A stretch of 64,000 nt of DNA from the NCBI GenBank assembly GCA_964383765.1, contig CAYLHT010000001.1:36998-100997 (forward strand), written 5' to 3'. Shown piece after piece: positions 32,503 through 62,397 of the stretch. This stretch comes from an uncultured Gammaproteobacteria bacterium. GTDB taxonomy: Bacteria; Patescibacteriota; Patescibacteriia; SBBC01; CAIJZX01. Numbering within the stretch: the stretch's first letter is position 1; the number at the start of each line of letters is the position of its first letter. A program made the position numbers and the translations under genes. Below the pieces are notes generated by a model. That model ran no database searches. It worked only from the letters and a program-made list of their open reading frames with translations, and was not told where the DNA came from.

Positions 32503-32554
32503 AATCAGTTTTAGAAAAGTCTGGGCCAAAGTCGCCCGGATTTTTCAACTAAGA

Positions 32555-32590
32555 AAAACGCCCGACCCGGAGGGGAATCCGAATCGGGCG
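32555..32590 (-). terminator. rho-independent terminator, copy 1 of a near-identical pair
   Basis: Minus strand reads CGCCCGATTCGGATTCCCCTCCGGGTCGGGCG followed by TTTTT, placed 11 nt after the stop of the 32605 gene. Confidence 0.7.
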
Positions 32591-32604
32591 GGCGCACTTC
32601 AACT

Positions 32605-33219
32605 TCAGTTTGATCTTCGACGGTAGATCAGCCACAGGATGATGGCGACCAGCAAGATCACCACGTACACCGGACACAGGACCATCAGCACCCAGTTCCG
32701 GATAGCGTAAGCGTAGACGACCCAGAACATGTTGCTGGCTTCGAAGAGTAGCAACAGGCGGATGTCGACAACCCCCGCATCACGTTTTCGCCAGATTTCC
32801 CAGGGCTGAAGCGTCAGGGCGGCCGCTGAGCCACAACTGTAGACGAAGTACCAGCGATCGTGGCCACCGGTCAGCACCATGCCGGCCAGGGAGGCCAACA
32901 ACAATGCGCCGAACCAGTACTCCCACGCCCGGTAGCCTCCAAACTTCCACAGACCGATGGCGATGATCCCGAAGCCAAGACCGAGCACCAGCCCATTGAA
33001 GACCAGGGGCGGCTGTTTCGATGTCCAGCCATAGATCACCGCCGCAGTGCAGAGCGACGTCAGGAACAGCATCATGCCAACCGACATGGATGCTCCTGAC
33101 CGCTGACGCCAGATCTCGCGGATCTGGAATACCAGACCAATTCCCTCCACTACCGTGAAGACATTCACGCCCCAGACGCCAACAGTTTCCGGGGTCCAGT
33201 ACGAAAAGGCTGTATGCAC
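32605..33219 (-). CDS. small multi-TM membrane protein, cassette copy 1 (PQ-loop-like motif)
   Basis: Start set at GTG 33219, preceded by GGAGG (plus CCTCC 33226-33230). The longer ORF reaching 33336 would swallow its own promoter and leader. VFQIREIWRQRSGASMSVGMMLFLTSLCTAAVIYGW resembles a PQ-loop repeat. Confidence 0.5.
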   Translation of the reverse strand: MHTAFSYWTPETVGVWGVNVFTVVEGIGLVFQIREIWRQRSGASMSVGMMLFLTSLCTAAVIYGWTSKQPPLVFNGLVLGLGFGIIAIGLWKFGGYRAWEYWFGALLLASLAGMVLTGGHDRWYFVYSCGSAAALTLQPWEIWRKRDAGVVDIRLLLLFEASNMFWVVYAYAIRNWVLMVLCPVYVVILLVAIILWLIYRRRSN

Positions 33220-33326
33220 CTGGTGCCTCCGATGTGGAACCGTTGGATTGTCCAGGGACCGTGAGAGAATCCACTGAAGTATGGTCGAGCCGAAAACGCT
33301 CGACGTTTCGCAAAGGGCAACGAGCG

Positions 33327-33355
33327 AAATTAGCATAAATGTTAGCCGATGTCAA
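33327..33355 (-). promoter_or_regulatory. sigma70-type promoter of cassette copy 1
   Basis: Minus strand reads TTGACA, 17-nt spacer, TAATTT. Confidence 0.5.
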
Positions 33356-33372
33356 GACTGACACTCTGAAAT

Positions 33373-33410
33373 AAAAAACGCCCGACCCGGAGGTGAATCC
33401 GAATCGGGCG
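33373..33410 (-). terminator. rho-independent terminator, copy 2
   Basis: Same hairpin as 32555-32590 with one substitution (GGGG to GGTG in the loop), followed by TTTTTT on the minus strand. Confidence 0.7.
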
Positions 33411-33454
33411 AACAGATTGCTACTTCAGGGGGACACTGGCATTGACGTACGTCG

Positions 33455-34144
33455 TCAGTGTTGAAGTCTGTAGAAACTGCTCAGCGTGGCAAGTTCATCT
33501 CGCCAGCGGCCGTTTCCGTTCCGCCGATCGTAGTAGATCAGAATACCCAGCGTCGTTGCACTCATCACGGCTCCGCGCAGGGTGTTCACGATTCCATGAT
33601 GGCTGTGAGTCAGCAACGCAGCGATCAAACCGACTGCCGACGCCAAGAAGATCAGGCCCCAGTTACCAATCGAGTCGAAGGCGGCTCGACGTCTCAGGGC
33701 TTTTCCGATCGTGGCGAAGTAGGCCACCACCATCAGCACCTGAGTCGTCCAAAAGGTGACACCGGGTTGATTCCTGTGCAAGCCCCAATAGACGAGGGTC
33801 AAGGCCATGGTCGACAAGCAAGCCGACTGGACGCCATCGAACGCCACGCGCAGCTCCCCCGATCGTGCTTGAACGATCAGAATGCTGAACGTGATGATGG
33901 TGATTTCCAGCGCCGCCGCATACAACGCCGTGTTGGCCACCAGCTTTTCCGAAAAGCTCCGATCCGGAATCGCCTGGTAGGCGATCATCGACAGATTCAT
34001 CGCCAGGCAGGCAATGATCCACGTGGCCGGAGCAGGGTTAACGCGGCGGCGGATCACAAGTGGGCAGTACCAGCCCACCGTTGCCGCGAACAGCAGCAAA
34101 CTAAGCAGACTAGCAAAACTGGCCACGAGTCCTCCCGCTTTCAT
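33455..34144 (-). CDS. small multi-TM membrane protein, cassette copy 2
   Basis: ATG at 34144 (MKAGGLVAS...); 6 predicted TM helices; C-terminus LIYYDRRNG is similar to copy 1's LIYRRRSN. Confidence 0.5.
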   Translation of the reverse strand: MKAGGLVASFASLLSLLLFAATVGWYCPLVIRRRVNPAPATWIIACLAMNLSMIAYQAIPDRSFSEKLVANTALYAAALEITIITFSILIVQARSGELRVAFDGVQSACLSTMALTLVYWGLHRNQPGVTFWTTQVLMVVAYFATIGKALRRRAAFDSIGNWGLIFLASAVGLIAALLTHSHHGIVNTLRGAVMSATTLGILIYYDRRNGNGRWRDELATLSSFYRLQH

Positions 34145-34208
34145 AAGTGGGTCCACTGAAGTATGGTCGAGCTGAAAACGCTCGACGTTTCACAAAGGAC
34201 GACCGGCG

Positions 34209-34237
34209 AGACTACCACAAAATTCGGAAATTGTCAA
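34209..34237 (-). promoter_or_regulatory. sigma70-type promoter of cassette copy 2
   Basis: Minus strand reads TTGACA, 17-nt spacer, TAGTCT, followed by the conserved leader hairpin GTCGAGCgttttcaGCTCGAC. Confidence 0.5.
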
Positions 34238-34271
34238 TCCCTGGGTCGGCTATGTGCTATACTGTGGCCGC

Positions 34272-34970
34272 ATGTCTTTAATCAAACTGGACAATATTAC
34301 TAAAGTTTTCGACGTCGGCGACGACAAGTTCAAAGCGCTCGACGACGTTTCGTTATCTATTTCACCGGGCGAATTTGTCGCGATCATGGGACCGTCCGGC
34401 AGCGGCAAATCAACATTGATGAATGTGATTGGTTTGCTTGACCGTCCGACCGGTGGAACCTACAAACTGGATGGCAAGCCGGTGTCACTCACGATGTCCG
34501 ACCGGGCGCAAGCGAAACTGCGTTCAGAATTTATTGGTTTCGTTTTTCAAAACTTCAATTTATTGCCCAATCTCGATGTTCTCGCCAATGTGATGTTACC
34601 GTCGACGTATGCCCGCTCCTTCTCACCTAACCTCTCCTCCCAAGGGAGGAGAGGAGGGAAGCTGGGGCGCGCCGTCGAGATACTAAACAATGTCGGACTC
34701 GGTCACCGTTTGCACTACCACGTCACGAAGCTGTCCGGCGGCGAAAAACAGCGCGTCGCGATCGCCCGCGCTTTGATGAATAATCCAAAAGTGATTCTGG
34801 CCGATGAACCAACCGGCAACCTCGATTCAAAATCTGGCAAAGAAGTCATGACGTTGTTGATGGACTTGAATACGAAGGGCACAACCCTGATTGTCGTAAC
34901 GCACAGCGATGAATTAGCGGCACTTGCGAATCGGATCATCCGAATAATGGATGGGAGAATAGTTTCATGA
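34272..34970 (+). CDS. ABC transporter ATP-binding protein (MacB/LolD-type) containing an in-frame palindromic insertion
   Basis: Walker [10 protein letters not shown], signature [15 protein letters not shown], Walker B ILADEPT. The start is set at [13 protein letters not shown]. The [12 protein letters not shown] stretch is encoded by the palindrome at 34631-34654. Confidence 0.85.
34631..34654. repeat. perfect palindrome CCTCTCCTCCC-aa-GGGAGGAGAGG (MITE-like element, copy A) inside the ABC ATPase gene
   Basis: The 11-nt arms are exact reverse complements. The core CCTCCTCT/AGAGGAGG is shared with the elements at 42296-42356 and 59611-59682. Confidence 0.7.
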
Positions 34971-39611: not shown

Positions 39612-40236
39612 CGGTGATGAGTTGAGCGAAAGCGTCGTAACTTCCGGGACTAACGATTTGCTTGCCGTTGAGGAAGAACGTTGGCGTGCCGGGAATTCGA
39701 GCCGCTGTACCGGTGGTCACGTCACGCTCAATCCGATCTTTGACGGCCTGACTGTCCAGATCAGTGGTGAACTTCGCGACATCAAGTTTAAGCTCCTCAG
39801 CGTAACCGATCAAGACAGGCCGAACGTCGAGTGATTGTGACCAGGAGCTTTGACGACTGAAGAGCAGATCGTGAAAATCCCAAAATTTATTTTGCAGGTT
39901 AGCCGCTTCAGCGGCTTGGGCGGCGGTTTGGGCATACTGGTGCAACTGGCGCAGGGGATATTCCCGGTAGACGAGCGTCAACTTGGAGCCGAATTGTTTT
40001 TGGAGTTGCTCAACAATCGGTTCATATTGTCCGCAGGCCGGACATTGAAAATCACTATACTCAATCAAGACCGCCGGCGCGGTGAGTGGGCCGCTGGCGT
40101 GATCAGTCGCATCTGGTGCGGGCACGGTACTCGCACTTCCCCCACCGGCGGCGATGAACAACCAGACAATCAGACCCAGCCCGAGGATACCGCCACCCCA
40201 ACCCAACCATTGCTTTGTCATACGTCGCATAGTCAC
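39595..40236 (-). CDS. DsbA-family thiol:disulfide oxidoreductase (membrane-anchored)
   Basis: N-terminal TM anchor and thioredoxin fold with CPAC active site ([10 protein letters not shown]). Confidence 0.8.
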
Positions 40237-42623
40237 GATGTTAGTGATGAAAATCTTTTTAAGCGCAAGGAATTGAGAACGACAAACAATGACGAAAACG
40301 CCATCGCGCCCGAAGCAATAATTGGGCTGAGCGTCACTTGAAAGGCGGGATAGAGCACGCCGGCCGCAATCGGTAAGCCAAGCAGATTGTAGATAAATGC
40401 CCAGAACAAATTCTGTTTGATATTGCGGAGCGTGGATCGAGCCAGGTCGAGAGCCGTGACTACCTGTTGCAGATCATTAGCCACAATGGTAATTCCTGCG
40501 GCTTCGCGCGCGACGTCCGTGCCGGAGCCCATGGCGATGCCAACATTGGCTTGAGCTAAAGCCGGCGCATCGTTGACGCCGTCGCCGACCATGGCGACGC
40601 GTTGACCTCGTGATTGTAATTCTTTGATCTTGGTCGCCTTATCTTGAGGCAAGACATTCGCGATGACGTTGGCCGGATCAATCCCAGCCTGCTGGGCGAT
40701 GTGGCGGGCCGTAATGTCGTTATCGCCGGTCAGCAGATAGGCCTGAACTCCACGCAAACGAAGTTGTTCAATCGCCTTGGCGGTTGTCGGTTTAATCGTA
40801 TCGGCTACGCCAATCACGCCGGCGCATTCGTTATCAACTCCAACCTGGACTGCGGTTTTGCCGCCCATGGCCAACTCTTCGCGATTCAAGCGGCATCCTT
40901 CCGCATGCATGCCCAGCCGCTCCAGTAACCGTGGAGCGCCAACGACCACACGCTTGCCATTAATTTTCCCACTCACGCCAGTGCCGGGATGGGCTTGAAA
41001 ATCCGTGACAGGCAAGAGTGTAAGTTCCCGTCGTTTTGCTTCAGCCACAATCGCTTGTCCAATCGGATGTTCACTTCGTGATTCGAGTGATGCAGCGTAT
41101 TGCAAAATGAAATCACGACCGAGGACATCAGTGACCGCGAGTTTGCCAGTCGTTAACGTTCCGGTTTTATCGAAGACCACTGCATCGATTTTTTGCAGAC
41201 CTTCTAGCGCTTCGGCATTGCGGATGAGAATCCCATGCTCTGCGCCCTTGCCGACGCCGATCATGACGGCGGTGGGTGTCGCGAGTCCTAATGCGCACGG
41301 ACAGGCGATGATCAAGACGGTGACCGCAAGGATCAGCGCAAAACTCAGCGGCGTGACACCTACCGGCGGGAAGATCATCCACACCACAAACGTCAGGATC
41401 GCAATGCCAATCACGATGGGCACGAACACGCCCGAAATTCGATCCGCTAAACGCTGAATTGGCGCCTGGGAACTTTGGGCTTCTTCCACCAGGTGAATAA
41501 TTTGACTCAGCAGCGTCTGCCCGCCGACTTTGGTGGCACGGAACGTCAGCGTGCCATTGGCGTTGACCGTCCCACCATAGACCGTACTCCCAGCTCGCTT
41601 TTCATTCGGGAGACTTTCTCCGGTGACCATCGCTTCGTCGACCGCCGATTGTCCTTCGGTCACGATGCCGTCGACCGCGATTTTTTCGCCCGGACGCACC
41701 ATGATCAGGTCATTCACCTGAACTTGATCGAGTGAAATTTCAACTTCCTGTCCGTTCCGGATCACGCGTGCAGTTTTGGCCGCCAGCCCAGCCAGCTTGC
41801 GAATCGCGTCGTTGGCGCCGGCTTTCGCCCGCGCTTCCAGTAATTTGCCAAGCAGAATCAGGGTGATGATCACCACCGTCACATCAAAATATGTCGCCGG
41901 CGCATGCCCGCTACCGCTGAACGCGTTTGGCCAAACCACGGCCACCAGGCTGAAGACATATGCGGCGCCGGTCCCCACCGCCACCAGCGTATCCATATTG
42001 GCTTGAAAAAACTTCAACGATTTCCAGGCACTGATGTAAAACTGCGATCCCGCCCAAACAATCATCCCGCTCGCGACGATTAACTTGACGACGTTCCATA
42101 GGTTTTCCGACCCGACCGCGACACCAATCATCCGAGCAATATCCGGAAACATCACGATGACTGAGGCCACGATACCAACGGCAACCTTTGTCTGGAGGGT
42201 GCGGAGTTCCAGCTGGCGGAGTATGCGAGCATGATCGTGGACACTATGATCCAAACCACCCGTTTCGTGGGCGTGTTCGTGGGCATGGGTGTGGTCACTC
42301 TTCCCCCCAATCCCCCTCCTCTCAATTGAGAGGAGGGGGGTGTCGGGGGTGGAGTGAATGACCGCGGTGTACCCAAGGTCGGCAACGCGCTGACCAATAG
42401 TGTCAGGTGAGCACTGATGAGGATCATACTCAACTTTTGCCCTTTCGGTCGCATAGTTGACCTGCGCTGATGTCACCCCCGGCAATTTCTTGACTACGCG
42501 TTCAATACTTTTTGCGCACGAAGCACAGTGCATTCCAATCACCGGGAATGTCAACGTCGACTCAGTCATCCTACTTGACGAGGTTGATTGGTTTTCCTGC
42601 CGCGAACGCTTCAACATTGGCAA
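40233..42623 (-). CDS. copA: copper-translocating P1B-type ATPase with an in-frame MITE-like insertion in the HMA-to-TM linker
   Basis: HMA motif [11 protein letters not shown] motif [11 protein letters not shown], phosphorylation site DKTGTLT, HP and GDGVNDAP motifs. The element at 42296-42356 encodes ...[21 protein letters not shown].... Confidence 0.9.
42296..42356. repeat. nested palindromic MITE-like element, copy B (CACTCttcccccc..CCCCCTCCTCTCaattGAGAGGAGGGGG..gggggtGGAGTG)
   Basis: Outer arms CACTC/GGAGTG and inner 12-nt perfect arms around AATT. Shares its core and outer arms with copy C at 59611-59682. Confidence 0.7.
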
Positions 42624-43982: not shown

Positions 43983-44192
43983 CTATACAAACTTCTCAAC
44001 CGGATACCCCTCGGACGCTAATGCCCGTTGAAGCTGGTCCGGCTGAACCGATTCATCGTGTTCGACCGTCAATGTTTTTTTGATGGTGTTGACTTCAGCC
44101 TTGGTGACGCCGGCCGTGTCTTCGCAAATCCCTTCCATCACCATCGAGCAGGAAGCGCAGTCGTGTTTGAGAACTTTGAAGGTGGTGGTCAT
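43983..44192 (-). CDS. copZ: copper chaperone CopZ (HMA domain)
   Basis: 69 aa; metal-binding motif LKHDCASCSMV (MxCxxC). Confidence 0.8.
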   Translation of the reverse strand: MTTTFKVLKHDCASCSMVMEGICEDTAGVTKAEVNTIKKTLTVEHDESVQPDQLQRALASEGYPVEKFV

Positions 44193-51759: not shown

Positions 51760-51939
51760 GGGCAGGTAGCTCAGCTGGTTAGAGCAGTCGTCTTACCCGC
51801 CTGCCTAGCCGGCCTCTAGCTCAATGGCAGAGCGTCCGTCTTATACACGGATGGTTCCAGGTTCGAATCCTGGGAGGCCGACTAGGACGGCGGGCAGGTA
51901 CACGACCGGTCGATGGTTCGAATCCATCCCTGCCCACCA
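51760..51939 (+). tRNA. tRNA-Val(UAC)-like gene split by a 103-nt insert after anticodon nt 36 (exons 51760-51796 and 51900-51939)
   Basis: The 5' exon is GGGCAGG-TA-GCTCAGCTGGTTAGAGC-A-GTCGT-CTTAC. The 3' exon is AC-ACGAC-CGGTC-GATGG-TTCGAAT-CCATC-CCTGCCC-A-CCA. The acceptor stem has 7/7 bp, the anticodon stem 5/5 bp, and the reconstituted loop is CTTACAC. Confidence 0.5.
51810..51881 (+). tRNA. tRNA with anticodon UAU (tRNA-Ile2-like), embedded in the insert of the split tRNA-Val
   Basis: CGGCCTC-TA-GCTC-AATGGCA-GAGC-G-TCCGT-CTTATAC-ACGGA-TGGTT-CCAGG-TTCGAAT-CCTGG-GAGGCCG-A forms a perfect cloverleaf; no CCA is encoded. Confidence 0.7.
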
Positions 51940-53792: not shown

Positions 53793-53870
53793 TGGTGCGC
53801 GCATCTGGATTTGAACCAGAGACCTTCACAATGTCAATGTGACGCTCTAACCGGGCTGAGCTATGCGCGC
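53793..53870 (-). tRNA. tRNA-Val(GAC)
   Basis: Minus strand GCGCGCA-TA-GCTCAGCCCGGTTAGAGC-G-TCACA-TTGACAT-TGTGA-AGGTC-TCTGG-TTCAAAT-CCAGA-TGCGCGC-A-CCA. Confidence 0.9.
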
Positions 53871-57832: not shown

Positions 57833-58675
57833 ATGCTGAAGATATTGACCATCCACAGAGCCATGCACAGTCTTTCCCCAGCGTGGTATTCTTACGCTAT
57901 GCCAGCTCGCAAAACCCATCCCAGACATCCCCGCGACCAATGGTTCTATGTACCCATGGTGGCAGCCGCGATTGTGGTGATTGTGGCCGCAGGATATTTG
58001 ACGCGGCCGAACCAAAATTCTGAATCAACCAAGGCTTCCAAAACCAAGCCCACCATTTCCATTCCAACTACGGACGGTCTCATGCTAACCGCTGAATTGT
58101 CTCTACCAAAAGGGACAAATCAAGTGCCAGCCGTCATCTTGATTCACTCATTCGCCAAAGATCATCACGAGTGGGATCCGTATGTAAAAGATTTTACTGA
58201 TCATGGCTATGCAGTCTTGGCCTACGACACGCGTGGATTCGGGGAAAGTAAACTACCTTCTATTCCAACCGATTTCATGACGTGGGACAACGCCATGCCG
58301 ACCGATGTGACGGCGGTTGTTCAGTATCTCAAAACACAATCACGAATTGATGCACGCCGAATCAATGTGATTGGAGCGGAGCTTGGAGCCAACGTCGCCT
58401 ACGTCGCGAGTGGAAGCAATTTGGGAATTCACCGCACCGTCTTGTTGACTCCCCATCAAACCGGCGAAGCACTGAACGGAAAAAACATTTCCAACTTCAC
58501 CCCCACAAACAATTTTGGCGTGTCCGACATCAACGGTTCAGCAGATTTAGATCCATTCATGGCGTATGTGCCGGAACCGAAGGACAAATATGTGACCGAG
58601 ACACCAGCCACCGGGGTCAAGTTACTCAGCGTGACTTCAGTCAACACTCGAGTGATGGCTTGGTTGAGCCAATGA
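57833..58675 (+). CDS. alpha/beta hydrolase (dienelactone-hydrolase-like), membrane anchored
   Basis: TM helix MVAAAIVVIVAAGYL and VILIHSFAKDHHEWDPYVKDFTDHGYAVLAYDTRGFGES core. Confidence 0.65.
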   Translation: MLKILTIHRAMHSLSPAWYSYAMPARKTHPRHPRDQWFYVPMVAAAIVVIVAAGYLTRPNQNSESTKASKTKPTISIPTTDGLMLTAELSLPKGTNQVPAVILIHSFAKDHHEWDPYVKDFTDHGYAVLAYDTRGFGESKLPSIPTDFMTWDNAMPTDVTAVVQYLKTQSRIDARRINVIGAELGANVAYVASGSNLGIHRTVLLTPHQTGEALNGKNISNFTPTNNFGVSDINGSADLDPFMAYVPEPKDKYVTETPATGVKLLSVTSVNTRVMAWLSQ

Positions 58676-59604
58676 GCGATACACAAACCTTAGTTGTGCC
58701 GGCTGATCGTCAGCCAGTGCGGCTGGATGTTTTTTTGGTTGAACACGCAGACTTGTCTCGTTCGCAACTCCAAAAGAAAATCAAAGCCGGCCACATTTCC
58801 GTCAACGACAAATCCGTGAAAGCCCATCACCTGGTTCATCCGGGTGACGTGGTCGCGATTGAAGGGTTAGAAGTTCCGGTTCATGCCGAAGCCAAATCAA
58901 TGGATGGATTGGAACCAGAAATTTTACTTGAGAATAATGAATATCTAGTCGTCAACAAGCCGGCTGGACTGGTCGTGCACGGTGGTCTAGGGATTCATGA
59001 ACGGACATTAGCGGATTGGGCGGTTGAGCACGATCCGAAAATCGCGGAGGTTGGTGATCAACCCAAACAACGACCGGGCATTGTCCATCGTCTCGACCGT
59101 GATGTCTCAGGCGTAATGGTGATTGCGAAAACACAGGATGTTTTCAACGATCTCAAAACGCAATTTCAAGATCATTCGATCACCAAAGAGTATCTGGCGC
59201 TGGTCTACGGTCGCGTCGTGGATCAGGCTGGACGGATTGATTTTGCAATTGCGCGGAAAGCAGACAAATCCGGACTGATGGTGGCGCGACCGAAGTCGCA
59301 GGAAGGAAAGTCGGCAGAGACGTTGTTTCATGTTGAGCGCTATGTGAAGGGCAATACGCTGGTTCGCGTCCAGACGCTGACCGGCCGCTCGCACCAAATC
59401 CGCGTGCATTTCAAAGCTATTGGTCATCCGCTCGTTGGCGATCCACTGTACCGTGTCCGCAAGCTGAAAATCCATAAACTGACGCCACCGCGGCTGTGTT
59501 TGCACGCCACCAAGTTAGAATTTGATGATCTTGGTGGACAACGAATGAAATTTGAAGCCCCGCTGCCGAAAGACTTGGCGCAGTTTTTGGCGCGGGCGGG
59601 GTAA
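58660..59604 (+). CDS. rluD: RluA-family 23S rRNA pseudouridine synthase (RluD-like, S4 domain)
   Basis: N-terminal S4 domain (RLDVFL...SRSQLQKKIKAGHISVN) and catalytic motif HRLDRDVSGVMVIAK. Confidence 0.85.
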   Translation: MVEPMSDTQTLVVPADRQPVRLDVFLVEHADLSRSQLQKKIKAGHISVNDKSVKAHHLVHPGDVVAIEGLEVPVHAEAKSMDGLEPEILLENNEYLVVNKPAGLVVHGGLGIHERTLADWAVEHDPKIAEVGDQPKQRPGIVHRLDRDVSGVMVIAKTQDVFNDLKTQFQDHSITKEYLALVYGRVVDQAGRIDFAIARKADKSGLMVARPKSQEGKSAETLFHVERYVKGNTLVRVQTLTGRSHQIRVHFKAIGHPLVGDPLYRVRKLKIHKLTPPRLCLHATKLEFDDLGGQRMKFEAPLPKDLAQFLARAG

Positions 59605-59610
59605 GACTGT

Positions 59611-59682
59611 CACTCCACCCCCTCGGCTGCGCCGGTCCCCCTCCTCTGAATTCAGAGGAGGGGGACGATGGGGGGAGGAGTG
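59611..59682. repeat. nested palindromic MITE-like element, copy C (intergenic, 7 nt after the rluD stop)
   Basis: CACTCCACCCCC..GTCCCCCTCCTCTGaattCAGAGGAGGGGGAC..GGGGGGAGGAGTG; the inner 14-nt arms are perfect. The right arm forms AGAGGAGGGGG-ACG-ATG (an SD plus start) for ORF 59668-59934. Confidence 0.7.
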
Positions 59683-61219: not shown

Positions 61220-61308
61220 GCGGACGTGGCGGAACTTGGTATACGCGCCAGCTTGAGGGGCTGGTGGCCGCAAGGCCTTGGAGGTTCGAGTCCTCTCGTC
61301 CGCACCAA
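61220..61308 (+). tRNA. tRNA-Leu(GAG)
   Basis: Type II tRNA: GCGGACG acceptor, anticodon arm CCAGC-TTGAGGG-GCTGG, long variable arm TGGCCGCAAGGCCTT, T-arm GGAGG-TTCGAGT-CCTCT, CCA encoded. Confidence 0.85.
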
Positions 61309-61320
61309 GTCGCTCTTTCC

Positions 61321-61397
61321 GGACGATTAGCTCAGTTGGTTAGAGCGTCTCGTTTACACCGAGAAGGTCGTAGGTTCGAATCCTACATCGTCCACCA
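61321..61397 (+). tRNA. tRNA-Val(UAC)
   Basis: GGACGAT-TA-GCTCAGTTGGTTAGAGC-G-TCTCG-TTTACAC-CGAGA-AGGTC-GTAGG-TTCGAAT-CCTAC-ATCGTCC-A-CCA. Confidence 0.9.
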
Positions 61398-61416
61398 AAC
61401 ATGTTAAACTAAAAAC

Positions 61417-61659
61417 ATGAAGTGGCTGATCGCAATTGCCGTTATCGGTGTGGGTAGTCTGATGGTTATCAAAACTCAGTGGATCACGGATTTTACCGGA
61501 CCGATTGATTGGGCCGAACAACATCTCGGATCTGAGGGCGGGACACGACTTTTCATCAAACTCCTGGGCGTGATTCTGATCCTGGGCGCATTCCTTGGGG
61601 TGACGGGAATTCTGGGTGGATGGATTACTGGATTTTTTGGGGGGTTGGGACAGAGATAG
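61417..61659 (+). CDS. small membrane protein between tRNA genes (hypothetical)
   Basis: 80 aa with two TM helices and a glycine-zipper-like C-terminus; located between tRNA-Val and tRNA-Ala. Confidence 0.3.
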   Translation: MKWLIAIAVIGVGSLMVIKTQWITDFTGPIDWAEQHLGSEGGTRLFIKLLGVILILGAFLGVTGILGGWITGFFGGLGQR

Positions 61660-61663
61660 TATT

Positions 61664-61736
61664 GGGCCAGTAGCTCAGTTGGTAGAGCATCCGGTTTGCA
61701 TCCGGAAGGTCTGGGGTTCGAATCCCCACTGGTCCA
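61664..61736 (+). tRNA. tRNA-Ala(UGC)
   Basis: GGGCCAG-TA-GCTCAGTTGGTAGAGC-A-TCCGG-TTTGCAT-CCGGA-AGGTC-TGGGG-TTCGAAT-CCCCA-CTGGTCC-A; no CCA encoded. Confidence 0.9.
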
Positions 61737-61744
61737 CTAAAAAA

Positions 61745-62240
61745 ACACCCGGTCTCGGAGTCGTGTCGAGGATTATCCATCCAGGATGCACGACCCGAGG
61801 CCGGGGTTGGTGGAGCGACGCGCGAATGCCCGGAGAGCCGGGTAGGCTGTTATCCGTGCAAGCGCCAGTGGCGCTGCAATACGGGAGCCTTGAGCCTCGG
61901 CGATGGGCGCCGCCGCGAATGCGGCGGTCTAGTGCGCGGTATCAACTTGCGCGTGAGCGAGCCCAACGACATCGTCGTTGTGTTCCCTATTCGAGGGAAC
62001 CTATCGGTGTTTTGGGTGAATCTCAATTCACCGACTGGCTCTTGCGGCCTCACGCCGCGGCGGTACTCTTCTTCATGGCGACCTCCATGGTTGGCCAGAA
62101 AGCGGGCGCACTCCCAGGGTTGGGACTGCCCCGACAGTGAAGACTTTTTCAAGATGCCCGAGCAGTATACACCCTTTTCGGATTTTGTCAAGACGGGCTT
62201 GAAAATAATGCCCAAGTCAGCTATCCTTGCCAGGCAATTT
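61745..62240 (+). other. GC-rich, hairpin-dense, ORF-poor block between tRNA-Ala and tRNA-Phe; unassigned structured RNA candidate
   Basis: Contains the hairpins CCCGGTCTCGG...CCGAGGCCGGG (with inner GTCGTG/CACGAC), GCGCC-agt-GGCGC and CCGCCGC-gaat-GCGGCGG, plus the 12-mer CCGGGTAGGCTG and CTTGAGCC seen in bacterial RNase P RNA. The only ORFs here are low-complexity or span the tRNA. Confidence 0.25.
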
Positions 62241-62245
62241 TGATC

Positions 62246-62320
62246 GCCTGGGTAGCTCAGTGGTAGAGCGCAGCCCTGAAGAGGCTGGCGTCGTCAGTTC
62301 GATTCTGACCCCAGGCACCA
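62246..62320 (+). tRNA. tRNA-Phe(GAA)
   Basis: GCCTGGG-TA-GCTCAGTGGTAGAGC-G-CAGCC-CTGAAGA-GGCTG-GCGTC-GTCAG-TTCGATT-CTGAC-CCCAGGC-A-CCA. Confidence 0.9.
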
Positions 62321-62321
62321 C

Positions 62322-62397
62322 GGCCCGATAGCTCAATTGGTAGAGCAGCTGCCTCTTAAGCAGCGGGTTGCAGGTTCGAGTCCTGCTCGGGTCACCA
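62322..62397 (+). tRNA. tRNA-Lys(CUU)
   Basis: GGCCCGA-TA-GCTCAATTGGTAGAGC-A-GCTGC-CTCTTAA-GCAGC-GGGTT-GCAGG-TTCGAGT-CCTGC-TCGGGTC-A-CCA. Confidence 0.9.

Follow-up and report, generated by a model that had tools for sequence, protein, structure and literature searches.

How does a 61-bp nested palindrome come to lie within the open reading frame (ORF) of a copper pump and be read straight through as protein? The question is raised by a stretch of 64,000 nucleotides from contig CAYLHT010000001.1 (assembly GCA_964383765.1; hereafter the window), in which such an element occupies positions 42296-42356 of copA, the minus-strand gene for a P1B-type copper ATPase. The answer that we favor, with a probability of roughly 0.7, is that the element is one copy of a dispersed repeat, non-autonomous and able to form hairpins, similar to repetitive extragenic palindromic (REP) sequences and their doublets (REPINs) or to Rickettsia palindromic elements (RPEs). 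This copy would have landed in the copA linker, been tolerated and translated there, and been mobilized in trans, with DUF559 nucleases as the best candidate for the enzyme.

The copA copy and its translated linker

The host gene is intact. Its ORF spans 40233..42623 on the minus strand, and the 778-residue protein read from the ATG at 42569 (40233..42569) is identical to database protein P0001, with precomputed Pfam domains HMA, E1-E2_ATPase, and Hydrolase. All motifs of a P1B Cu(I) ATPase are present, namely the GMxCxxC of the HMA domain, the transmembrane (TM) CPC, DKTGT, and GDGxNDxP (here GDGVNDAP). The palindrome makes up 20 codons plus one nucleotide, codons 72-91 corresponding to 42297-42356, and is thus read in frame as 20 residues of CopA. 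The original prediction, that the element lies wholly within the ATPase ORF, keeps the frame, and adds a 20-residue segment on the minus strand, is borne out at residues 72-91. As 61 bp is not a multiple of three, the true insertion may have boundaries other than those of the palindrome.

The plus strand of the element reads CACTCTTCCCCCCAATCCCCCTCCTCTCAATTGAGAGGAGGGGGGTGTCGGGGGTGGAGTG. At its center (42312..42339) is a perfect 28-nt palindrome, CCCCCTCCTCTCAATTGAGAGGAGGGGG, built from two 12-nt arms, the pyrimidine arm CCCCCTCCTCTC and the purine arm GAGAGGAGGGGG, around a self-complementary AATT loop. Two outer arms enclose it, CACTCTTCCCCCC at 42296..42308 and GGGGGTGGAGTG at 42345..42356 (both plus strand), which pair with each other; the latter's complement, CACTCCACCCCC, is the arm that does not vary within the family. 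On the coding strand the order is therefore CACTCCACCCCC-gaca-CCCCCCTCCTCTC-AATT-GAGAGGAGGGGG-att-GGGGGGAAGAGTG. The element had been described as having perfect 12-nt inner arms and matching outer arms; the inner palindrome is indeed perfect, but the outer arms pair perfectly only in CACTC/GAGTG, and their C-run and G-run pair imperfectly.

This architecture is not what the composition of the window would produce by chance. Allowing up to three mismatches, the inner palindrome occurs twice in the 64 kb against 0.00 expected (100 shuffles), and perfect pyrimidine/purine hairpins with a stem of at least 9 bp occur four times against zero to one in 20 Markov shuffles. Either strand is predicted to fold into one long nested hairpin, at -48.8 kcal/mol for the coding strand (z = -6.5) and -52.9 kcal/mol for the other, with z-scores of about -6.5 to -7.1. 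Rfam returned nothing for the element at its gathering threshold, and at a permissive threshold only sub-threshold generic hairpins of the miRNA-precursor kind. Since the arms are all-pyrimidine or all-purine, stop codons cannot occur in them; four of the six reading frames through the copA copy are open, and stops arise from the loop only.

The site of the insertion is disordered and variable. In an alignment of 45 homologues, the linker between the HMA domain and the first TM segment (from GYTAV to the His-rich HSVHDH) is between about 10 and about 60 residues long. An AlphaFold2 model of CopA computed from a 40-sequence alignment (mean pLDDT 81, pTM 0.73) has pLDDT below 50 at residues 75-107 and about 53 for the block 71-80, with no secondary structure between the strand at 68-69 and the helix at 106-147. 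By this model the element occupies a disordered, length-tolerant linker, in agreement with the earlier suggestion of an insertion-tolerant position. Survival of the copy would be explained by a net length that keeps the frame, by stop-free arms, and by a Pro/Ser/Gly/Arg-rich peptide placed in a segment that tolerates any length; for these same reasons the element would be transcribed and translated within a functional copper pump. We infer that the repeat is translated as a neutral linker without a function of its own in CopA.

Further copies and occupancy of the copA linker

The copA copy belongs to a repeat family. A second full copy of 72 bp lies 17 kb away on the plus strand at 59611..59682, in intergenic DNA 6 nt past the stop codon of an rluD-like gene (58660-59604). 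It is recovered by nhmmer with an E-value of ~1e-12 and has the same outer and inner arms as the copA copy, with ~69% identity to it across 67 aligned positions (a count that includes 3 nt on either side of each element). The 12-nt arm CACTCCACCCCC is identical in the two, and the loop core AATT is common to both. In the 59611-59682 copy a compensated C/G swap adjoins the loop, and the left spacer contains an additional mini-hairpin, GGCtGCGCC. A role for it as an intrinsic terminator was considered and rejected, as no T-run follows and a terminator scan makes no call.

A 24-bp CT/GA palindrome, CCTCTCCTCCC-AA-GGGAGGAGAGG, is found on the plus strand at 34631..34654, in frame within the gene of an ABC-transporter ATPase (34254-34970) that is itself intact. 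It coincides with a segment of 9-10 residues that is missing in three orthologues of this ATPase, and matches the family profile weakly (nhmmer E ~0.09). Judged by sequence, it is a second lineage-specific in-frame palindromic insertion and a loose relative of the family. The original prediction had placed both 34631-34654 and 59611-59682 in the same family as the copA element, an assignment that stands for the latter but has to be loosened for the former.

Outside the window, a scan of metagenomes for the AATT-loop pattern yielded one match, on the 1.4-kb contig L124, where the copy begins 3 nt past the stop of an efp-like gene (frame read by eye) in the opposite orientation. Two full copies thus sit 3-6 nt past stop codons, and such copies may also act as 3' hairpins of the mRNA, stabilizing or delimiting transcripts as REPs do. 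The arm CACTCCACCCCC is identical in four copies. In related contigs, family copies are present in L124, L128, L157, L158, and L159, and the Kerfeldbacteria-like contigs L157, L158, and L159 carry approximately one family hairpin per 10-20 kb. In a scan of viral contigs for an outer arm plus an inner arm, the matches look like chance, with L129 as a possible exception.

The closest named homologues of the window CopA are from Candidatus Kerfeldbacteria, and the copper locus (DsbD/cupredoxin, HMA, CsoR, 2-hydroxyacid dehydrogenase, CopA, DsbA, VKOR) is syntenic with that of the Kerfeldbacteria metagenome-assembled genome (MAG) L122. We read the linker DNA in nine orthologues (L157, L126, L158, L159, L128, L121, L125, L122, and L127) and found that its occupancy differs. 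Four have no element, including L157, whose CopA (P0002) is the sister of the window CopA on a neighbor-joining (NJ) tree, together with L126, L158, and L159; most of the 45 CopA homologues likewise have no such segment. L128 carries a homologous element whose codon position is that of the window copy (GAC TCC ACC CCC AAC CCC TCC CCT GAA TTC AGG GGA G…), and this element agrees with the window copy in its left arm and AATT loop core and has similar flanks. Two positions of its stem are altered on both sides (T-A to C-G and C-G to G-C) with pairing kept, and a pairing check of the window and L128 copies found 92% of cells paired and three pairs changed on both sides. In L121 and L125 another variant lies three codons further on, CCCCCCTCCTA-GGG-TAGGAGGGG-TC-GGGGGAGG, while L122 has a longer 96-bp variant with GCGGCCGC brackets that keeps the outer arms and differs in its inner content, and L127 has a degenerate variant ending in GGGGCGGGGTGGTGGG. 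The segment had been expected to be lineage-specific in an alignment of orthologues. That it is absent from L157 and most orthologues fits the expectation; the homologous element of L128 and the other variants in the linkers of L121, L125, L122, and L127 do not.

The octamer GCGGCCGC stands on both sides of the second type of element in L121 (1802-1870) and L122 (10214-10330), and a single GCGGCCGC is found in the empty site of L126 (3887-3900). The bracket may be an 8-bp target duplication or equally a part of the inverted repeat, an ambiguity that arises because the octamer is itself palindromic.

Could the element be an artefact of assembly or a chimera? The DNA probably comes from a MAG, and sequencing can be disturbed by stable hairpins. 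However, the ORF continues in frame through the element, and related elements are present at the copA site in four independent assemblies (SRR22388048, SRR22388232, GCA_040960375.1, and GCA_016193315.1). Because these independent assemblies agree, we regard an artefact as having next to no probability.

A more serious alternative is that the linker received a single ancient insertion, or that the sequence is ancestral, and that vertical inheritance with remodeling and deletion produced the present pattern without repeated targeting. All element-bearing orthologues carry the element immediately after GYTAV(I/M)(H/D/E), the window and L128 copies are clearly homologous with the flanks GTCAT- and -CACACCCA in common, and templated repair can keep palindromes symmetric. 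Against this, the elements are of two sequence types with different flanks, one with the GCGGCCGC duplication (L121, L125, L122) and one with none (window, L128), and the two types enter at different codon positions. Nor do the element states follow the CopA phylogeny: on an NJ tree built from the conserved region of CopA they are interleaved, in that P0003 has as its sister P0009, which carries the other type, and the sister of P0010, P0008, is empty; and L122 has kept its outer arms around different inner content. We therefore consider purely vertical descent unlikely, though it is the strongest of the competing explanations. From the comparison of sequences we conclude that the copA linker was filled on two or more occasions, or on one occasion with repeated loss and replacement afterwards. 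The insertion appears to be inherited, and old or recurrent, rather than recent or private to the window genome. On the dispersed-repeat reading, a copy would have landed in the linker DNA between the HMA domain and the first membrane helix in an ancestor of the Kerfeldbacteria-like lineage, and the same linker would have been struck at least twice in the clade.

Occupancy also bears on the proposal that the hairpin is a functional mRNA signal, in which a pause or a -1 frameshift in the C-run, followed by termination at the TGA of the loop, would release a CopZ-like chaperone of ~80 residues. The precedent is E. coli copA, which makes CopA(Z) by frameshifting (Meydan 2017 and Drees 2017, cited as refs 175-176 in PMC7558416). 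As in that signal, a stable mRNA structure follows the first metal-binding domain with a -1 stop nearby: the -48.8 kcal/mol fold begins at codon 72, directly after the HMA fold, and the -1 frame of the copA copy has a stop in the loop. Early stops in the -1 frame are likewise seen in L128, L121, and L125 (sequences read by eye), and several orthologues retain some palindrome at the HMA-linker junction with compensatory changes. Unlike the E. coli signal, the stems are not preceded by an X XXY YYZ slippery heptamer (also read by eye), and the structure is a repeat that is absent from the nearest relative and from most orthologues. The same repeat is found past the rluD and efp stops and in unrelated genes, which a copA-specific function cannot explain. 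Moreover, a separate gene for a 69-residue HMA chaperone is already present at 43983-44192, 1.4 kb from copA, and chance alone would place an early -1 stop in ~40% of 10-codon stretches. A programmed signal is thus improbable.

Affinities with known palindromic repeats

The settling of palindromes inside genes has precedents. Selfish palindromes within protein-coding genes are best known in Rickettsia, with scattered cases among REPs. RPEs are about 100-150 bp long and A+T-rich, and we know of none outside the Rickettsiales. RPEs are described as dispersed palindromic repeats that lie between genes and in frame within functional ORFs, whose genes stay intact and have the repeat translated as an additional surface or linker peptide (Ogata et al. 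2000, as summarized in PMC3733652). The copA element resembles them in being carried in frame by an ORF that stays intact, and in being translated as an extra linker peptide: copA retains all its motifs, and the ABC ATPase gene is likewise intact. It differs from RPEs, in their general description, in its length of 61-72 bp, its G+C-rich composition, its strict pyrimidine/purine arms, and its host from the Candidate Phyla Radiation (CPR; Patescibacteria). The likeness to RPEs that had been proposed thus holds, in that a member of a dispersed repeat family sits in frame in copA and is read as linker.

REPs and REPINs, with their REP-associated tyrosine transposases (RAYTs), are presented in Nunvar 2010, Bertels and Rainey 2011 (PMC3116915), and Di Nocera 2013 (PMC3733652) as short, G+C-rich, imperfect palindromes often located just past stop codons. 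The same sources describe inverted doublets that fold into a longer hairpin and occasional intragenic copies, notably in replication and repair genes (PMC3116915, PMC3733652). In size the present repeat agrees with REPs (20-40 bp), the inner palindrome being 28 nt and one unit with its tail ~35 nt. Like the RAYT-REP system, it has an arrangement in which one conserved enzyme gene is flanked by repeats, here a DUF559 gene in other phyla. Unlike REPs, it has neither a GTAG or CGTC tag adjoining any of the four full copies, whose ends are CACTCC.../...GGAGTG, nor an associated RAYT, and the gene flanked by its relatives encodes a PD-(D/E)XK protein of the DUF559 family, not an HUH/Y1 enzyme.

The original prediction had called the element MITE-like, after the miniature transposable elements with inverted repeats (MITEs). 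Bacterial MITEs such as Correia/NEMIS are small non-coding elements, usually of 70-300 bp, with terminal inverted repeats and hairpin transcripts, and can be co-transcribed or fused with ORFs (PMC10969869). The copA element shares the terminal inverted repeats (outer arms CACTCCACCCCC / GGGGGRRGAGTG), the hairpin-forming capacity, and the fusion with an ORF. It is, however, shorter than the usual MITE; no parent insertion sequence (IS) with a DDE transposase was found; and only the L121/L122 variant has a possible 8-bp GCGGCCGC duplication. No transposase was evident in the first 60 residues of the window ORFs, on which a Pfam scan was not run, and a hidden Markov model (HMM) search found no Y1_Tnp in the window; elsewhere, DUF559 was the sole gene found to lie between matching ends. 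The inverted repeats fit the MITE label, but no target duplication flanks the window copies, no parent IS was found, and the anatomy and post-stop placement are more like those of REPs; the data support a REP/RPE-like element rather than a proven MITE. By analogy with these systems, the in-frame repeat in copA is a new example of an already known behavior.

A further comparison is with TIRYT/TIRtron elements, described in Di Nocera 2013 (PMC3733652) as moderately abundant solo, dimer, and cluster families of partly self-complementary, G-run inverted repeats with GGGGWSAS that flank a Y1 transposase gene. The repeat studied here and its relatives are similar in placing G-run inverted repeats around a small enzyme gene. 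Their tails, GGGGGTGGAG and GGGGGTGGTG, do not fit GGGGWSAS; only the GGGGTGAG flanks of cyanobacterial DUF559 genes (L162, L163) do. Our searches of the literature, by sequence strings and by topic, found no description of the repeat or of a link between DUF559 and repeats.

A Y1 (IS200-like, PF01797) gene of 144-187 aa does occur in three relatives (L126 11038-11601, L158 17951-18385, and L159 15164-15598), at one syntenic position between an S1-domain gene and ABC/MacB genes. Its 3' end carries a hairpin of its own, CCACAGCGCGGGTTTAAAACCCGCGCTGTGG (CCACAGCGCGGGTTT...), which is unrelated to the copA repeat and not dispersed. Neither the hairpin nor the gene is present in the window, where the equivalent interval (32503-34253) holds other ORFs. 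From its sequence context, the gene looks like a domesticated RAYT-like gene that was lost from the window genome. As the partner enzyme of the copA repeat it was rejected, given its own unrelated hairpin, its absence from the window, and the lack of any match of its HMM among the element-selected loci.

A wider hairpin-plus-tail family and DUF559 as a candidate enzyme

To look for relatives, a collection of genomes was scanned with the inner-hairpin pattern CCCCTCCTCTN{2,8}AGAGGAGGGG; the matches listed were mostly hairpins with 2-nt loops from Sphingomonadales. The repeat unit consists of a pyrimidine/purine hairpin, CCCCCTCCTCT-loop-AGAGGAGGGGG, and a C-run or G-run tail of 10-12 nt, CACTCCACCCCC / GGGGGTGGAGTG. 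The wider module, a CCCCTCCTCT hairpin followed by a GGGGGTGGWG tail, occurs in Sphingomonadales, Ignavibacteriota, Bacteroidota, Chloroflexota, and another CPR lineage. The tail, which lies outside the search pattern, accompanies 112 of the 156 hairpins among the matches listed, on one side (GGGGGTGGTG / GGGGGTGGAG within a few bases after the hairpin, or the complement before it). Examples of hairpin plus tail include Ignavibacteriota (L019, L029, L043, L056), a Bacteroidota MAG (L104), a member of Chloroflexia (L083), and Candidatus Nomurabacteria (L115). Both window copies have the hairpin and the G-run tail (GGGGGTGGWG within 2-5 nt, or its complement before), and have it on both sides. 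The usual architecture is hairpin - GGGGGTGGTG - 15-60 nt - CACCACCCCC - hairpin, of which the copA-type element is a permuted, minimal form: tail, one shared hairpin, tail, that is, two inverted units with a single hairpin.

Copies in frame within housekeeping genes are common among these relatives. They include ligA for the NAD-dependent ligase of Novosphingobium (L022 3125-3225), ileS for IleRS (L011 759-780), dnaE2 (L038 4897-4918), hrpB (L106 1202-1223), rnr for RNase R (L065 6427-6448), an HhH-GPD glycosylase gene (mutY) of Nomurabacteria (L115 1453-1477), a ubiE methyltransferase gene of Bacteroidota (L104 7064-7086), in which the insertion splits the Pfam match in two, and an lnt-like gene of Ignavibacteriota (L029 4913-4935). 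The gene names are backed by Pfam for L104 and L115 and were read from the translations in the other cases. As stop-free stretches across hairpins are a noisy test in the high-GC loci of sphingomonads, we accepted only cases with a recognizable protein context. The peptides produced are of the kind HHPPTPSSEEEGE or TPQPPPLSEEGE. In L043 (Kapaibacterium) a hairpin lies just before motif I of another methyltransferase, and in Sphingomonas melonis (L003 4909-5546) the hairpin-plus-tail unit is contained in a tandem repeat of ~308 bp present in three copies. The patescibacterial L001 (2363-2414) has a CCCCTCCTCT hairpin with an A-run on one side and a T-run on the other; it is thus a bidirectional intrinsic terminator that has no G-run tails and does not belong to the family.

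In element-selected loci, a gene of ~115 aa that matches Pfam DUF559 (PF04480) with E-values of 1e-25 to 1e-29 replaces the short spacer between inverted hairpin-plus-tail units. Across all samples, the arrangement was seen in L022 (2098-2610 and 3125-3225), L034, L053, L074, L111, L118, L016, L024, L056, L160-L166, and L170. Seven element-selected loci from different genera share the position recN-[unit-DUF559-unit]-ligA, which, by analogy with RAYTs, looks like the long vertical retention of one flanked gene; further cases include a second Novosphingobium locus (L074) and the Ignavibacteriota locus L056. As a guard against selection bias, we also examined DUF559 genes of PLSDB plasmids and viral contigs picked by protein only, blind to hairpins. 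Among the PLSDB plasmids, those of Sphingomonas (between sufB and sufC), Azospirillum, Synechocystis (two plasmids), and Pseudanabaena had DUF559 genes flanked by G/C-run pyrimidine/purine hairpins, all with G- or C-run tails except L162, whose tail is marginal. Of the six best DUF559 relatives in the viral contigs, three were flanked by hairpin-plus-tail units, and weak partial matches were unflanked. The HMM of the Kerfeldbacteria-type Y1 transposase had no match in the DUF559 loci.

The DUF559 protein family is very common, and to our knowledge it has been assigned no function. Because inverted hairpin-plus-tail units flank such a gene in other phyla, the DUF559 protein, a PD-(D/E)XK nuclease related to Vsr, is the best candidate, by analogy, for the enzyme that mobilizes or maintains the window element; spread would then depend on the action of an enzyme, supplied in trans, on the DNA hairpin. 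We advance a broader proposal tentatively, as possible rather than probable: that the copA element belongs, as a minimal and non-autonomous form, to a cross-phylum superfamily of pyrimidine/purine hairpins with G-run tails whose full-length members carry a DUF559 gene between two inverted units, a nuclease-based counterpart of RAYT-REPIN, with stop-free arms that would permit in-frame settling in housekeeping genes from Sphingomonadales (ligA, ileS, dnaE2) to CPR (copA, mutY).

The distribution of the tail also weighs on the idea that no mobile family exists, and that such palindromes form locally, by template switching or slippage in low-complexity DNA with G/C runs, their likeness being convergent. 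The arms do consist of low-complexity CT/GA and C/G runs, the linker has a biased composition (His, Pro, Gly), and no transposase or target duplication was identified. Yet convergence would have to account for a 12-nt identical arm and AATT core in copies 17 kb apart, for one architecture in contexts as unrelated as the ends of rluD and efp and the interior of copA, for a tail that accompanies the hairpin across phyla, and for the association of the repeats with one gene family, DUF559. We regard a purely local origin as very improbable.

Several observations count against the view of the copA element as a mobilized dispersed repeat. There is no pair of closely related genomes with a filled and an empty site, and movement is inferred. 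Target-site duplications are lacking at the window copies, L124, and L128, and the termini are not readable from so few copies; the 64 kb examined hold two to three. The pairing kept between the window and L128 elements could reflect selection on RNA structure, and translation of CopA residues 72-91 is deduced from the intact ORF. Part of the cross-phylum resemblance could be convergence, because G/C runs are of low complexity and the hairpin served as the search key. Finally, the window and ~200 kb of Kerfeldbacteria-like DNA showed neither a DUF559 nor a Y1 gene linked to the repeat, the DUF559 scan covering the window and L121-L128.

Elsewhere in the window, a 16S rRNA gene occupies positions 1-1600 on the minus strand, its 3' end running off the window. 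It contains a 156-nt insertion at ~1363-1520; at the corresponding model positions (~78-84) the Rfam bacterial SSU consensus has 6 nt. The insert holds an A/T-rich inverted repeat (1375-1513). CPR bacteria typically have such rRNA insertions. Of the seven tRNA genes in the window, five form a cluster at 61220-62394, shortly downstream of the 59611-59682 repeat copy and the L19 gene, and the others are at 51810-51881 and 53796-53870.

The locus extends the behavior of selfish palindromes within ORFs to a small genome of the CPR (Patescibacteria) type. The presence of different variants in the same copA linker of sister lineages offers a natural system for studying the choice of sites and the retention of copies, and the design of the arms, free of stops, would explain how such repeats enter ORFs with little damage. 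If DUF559 proteins mobilize or maintain these repeats, the family would gain a role, and REP-like elements a second class of enzyme. Elements of this kind would leave lineage-specific indels in conserved proteins and hairpins of about -49 kcal/mol in mRNAs, and are thus relevant to those who annotate genomes, infer phylogenies, or predict protein structures.

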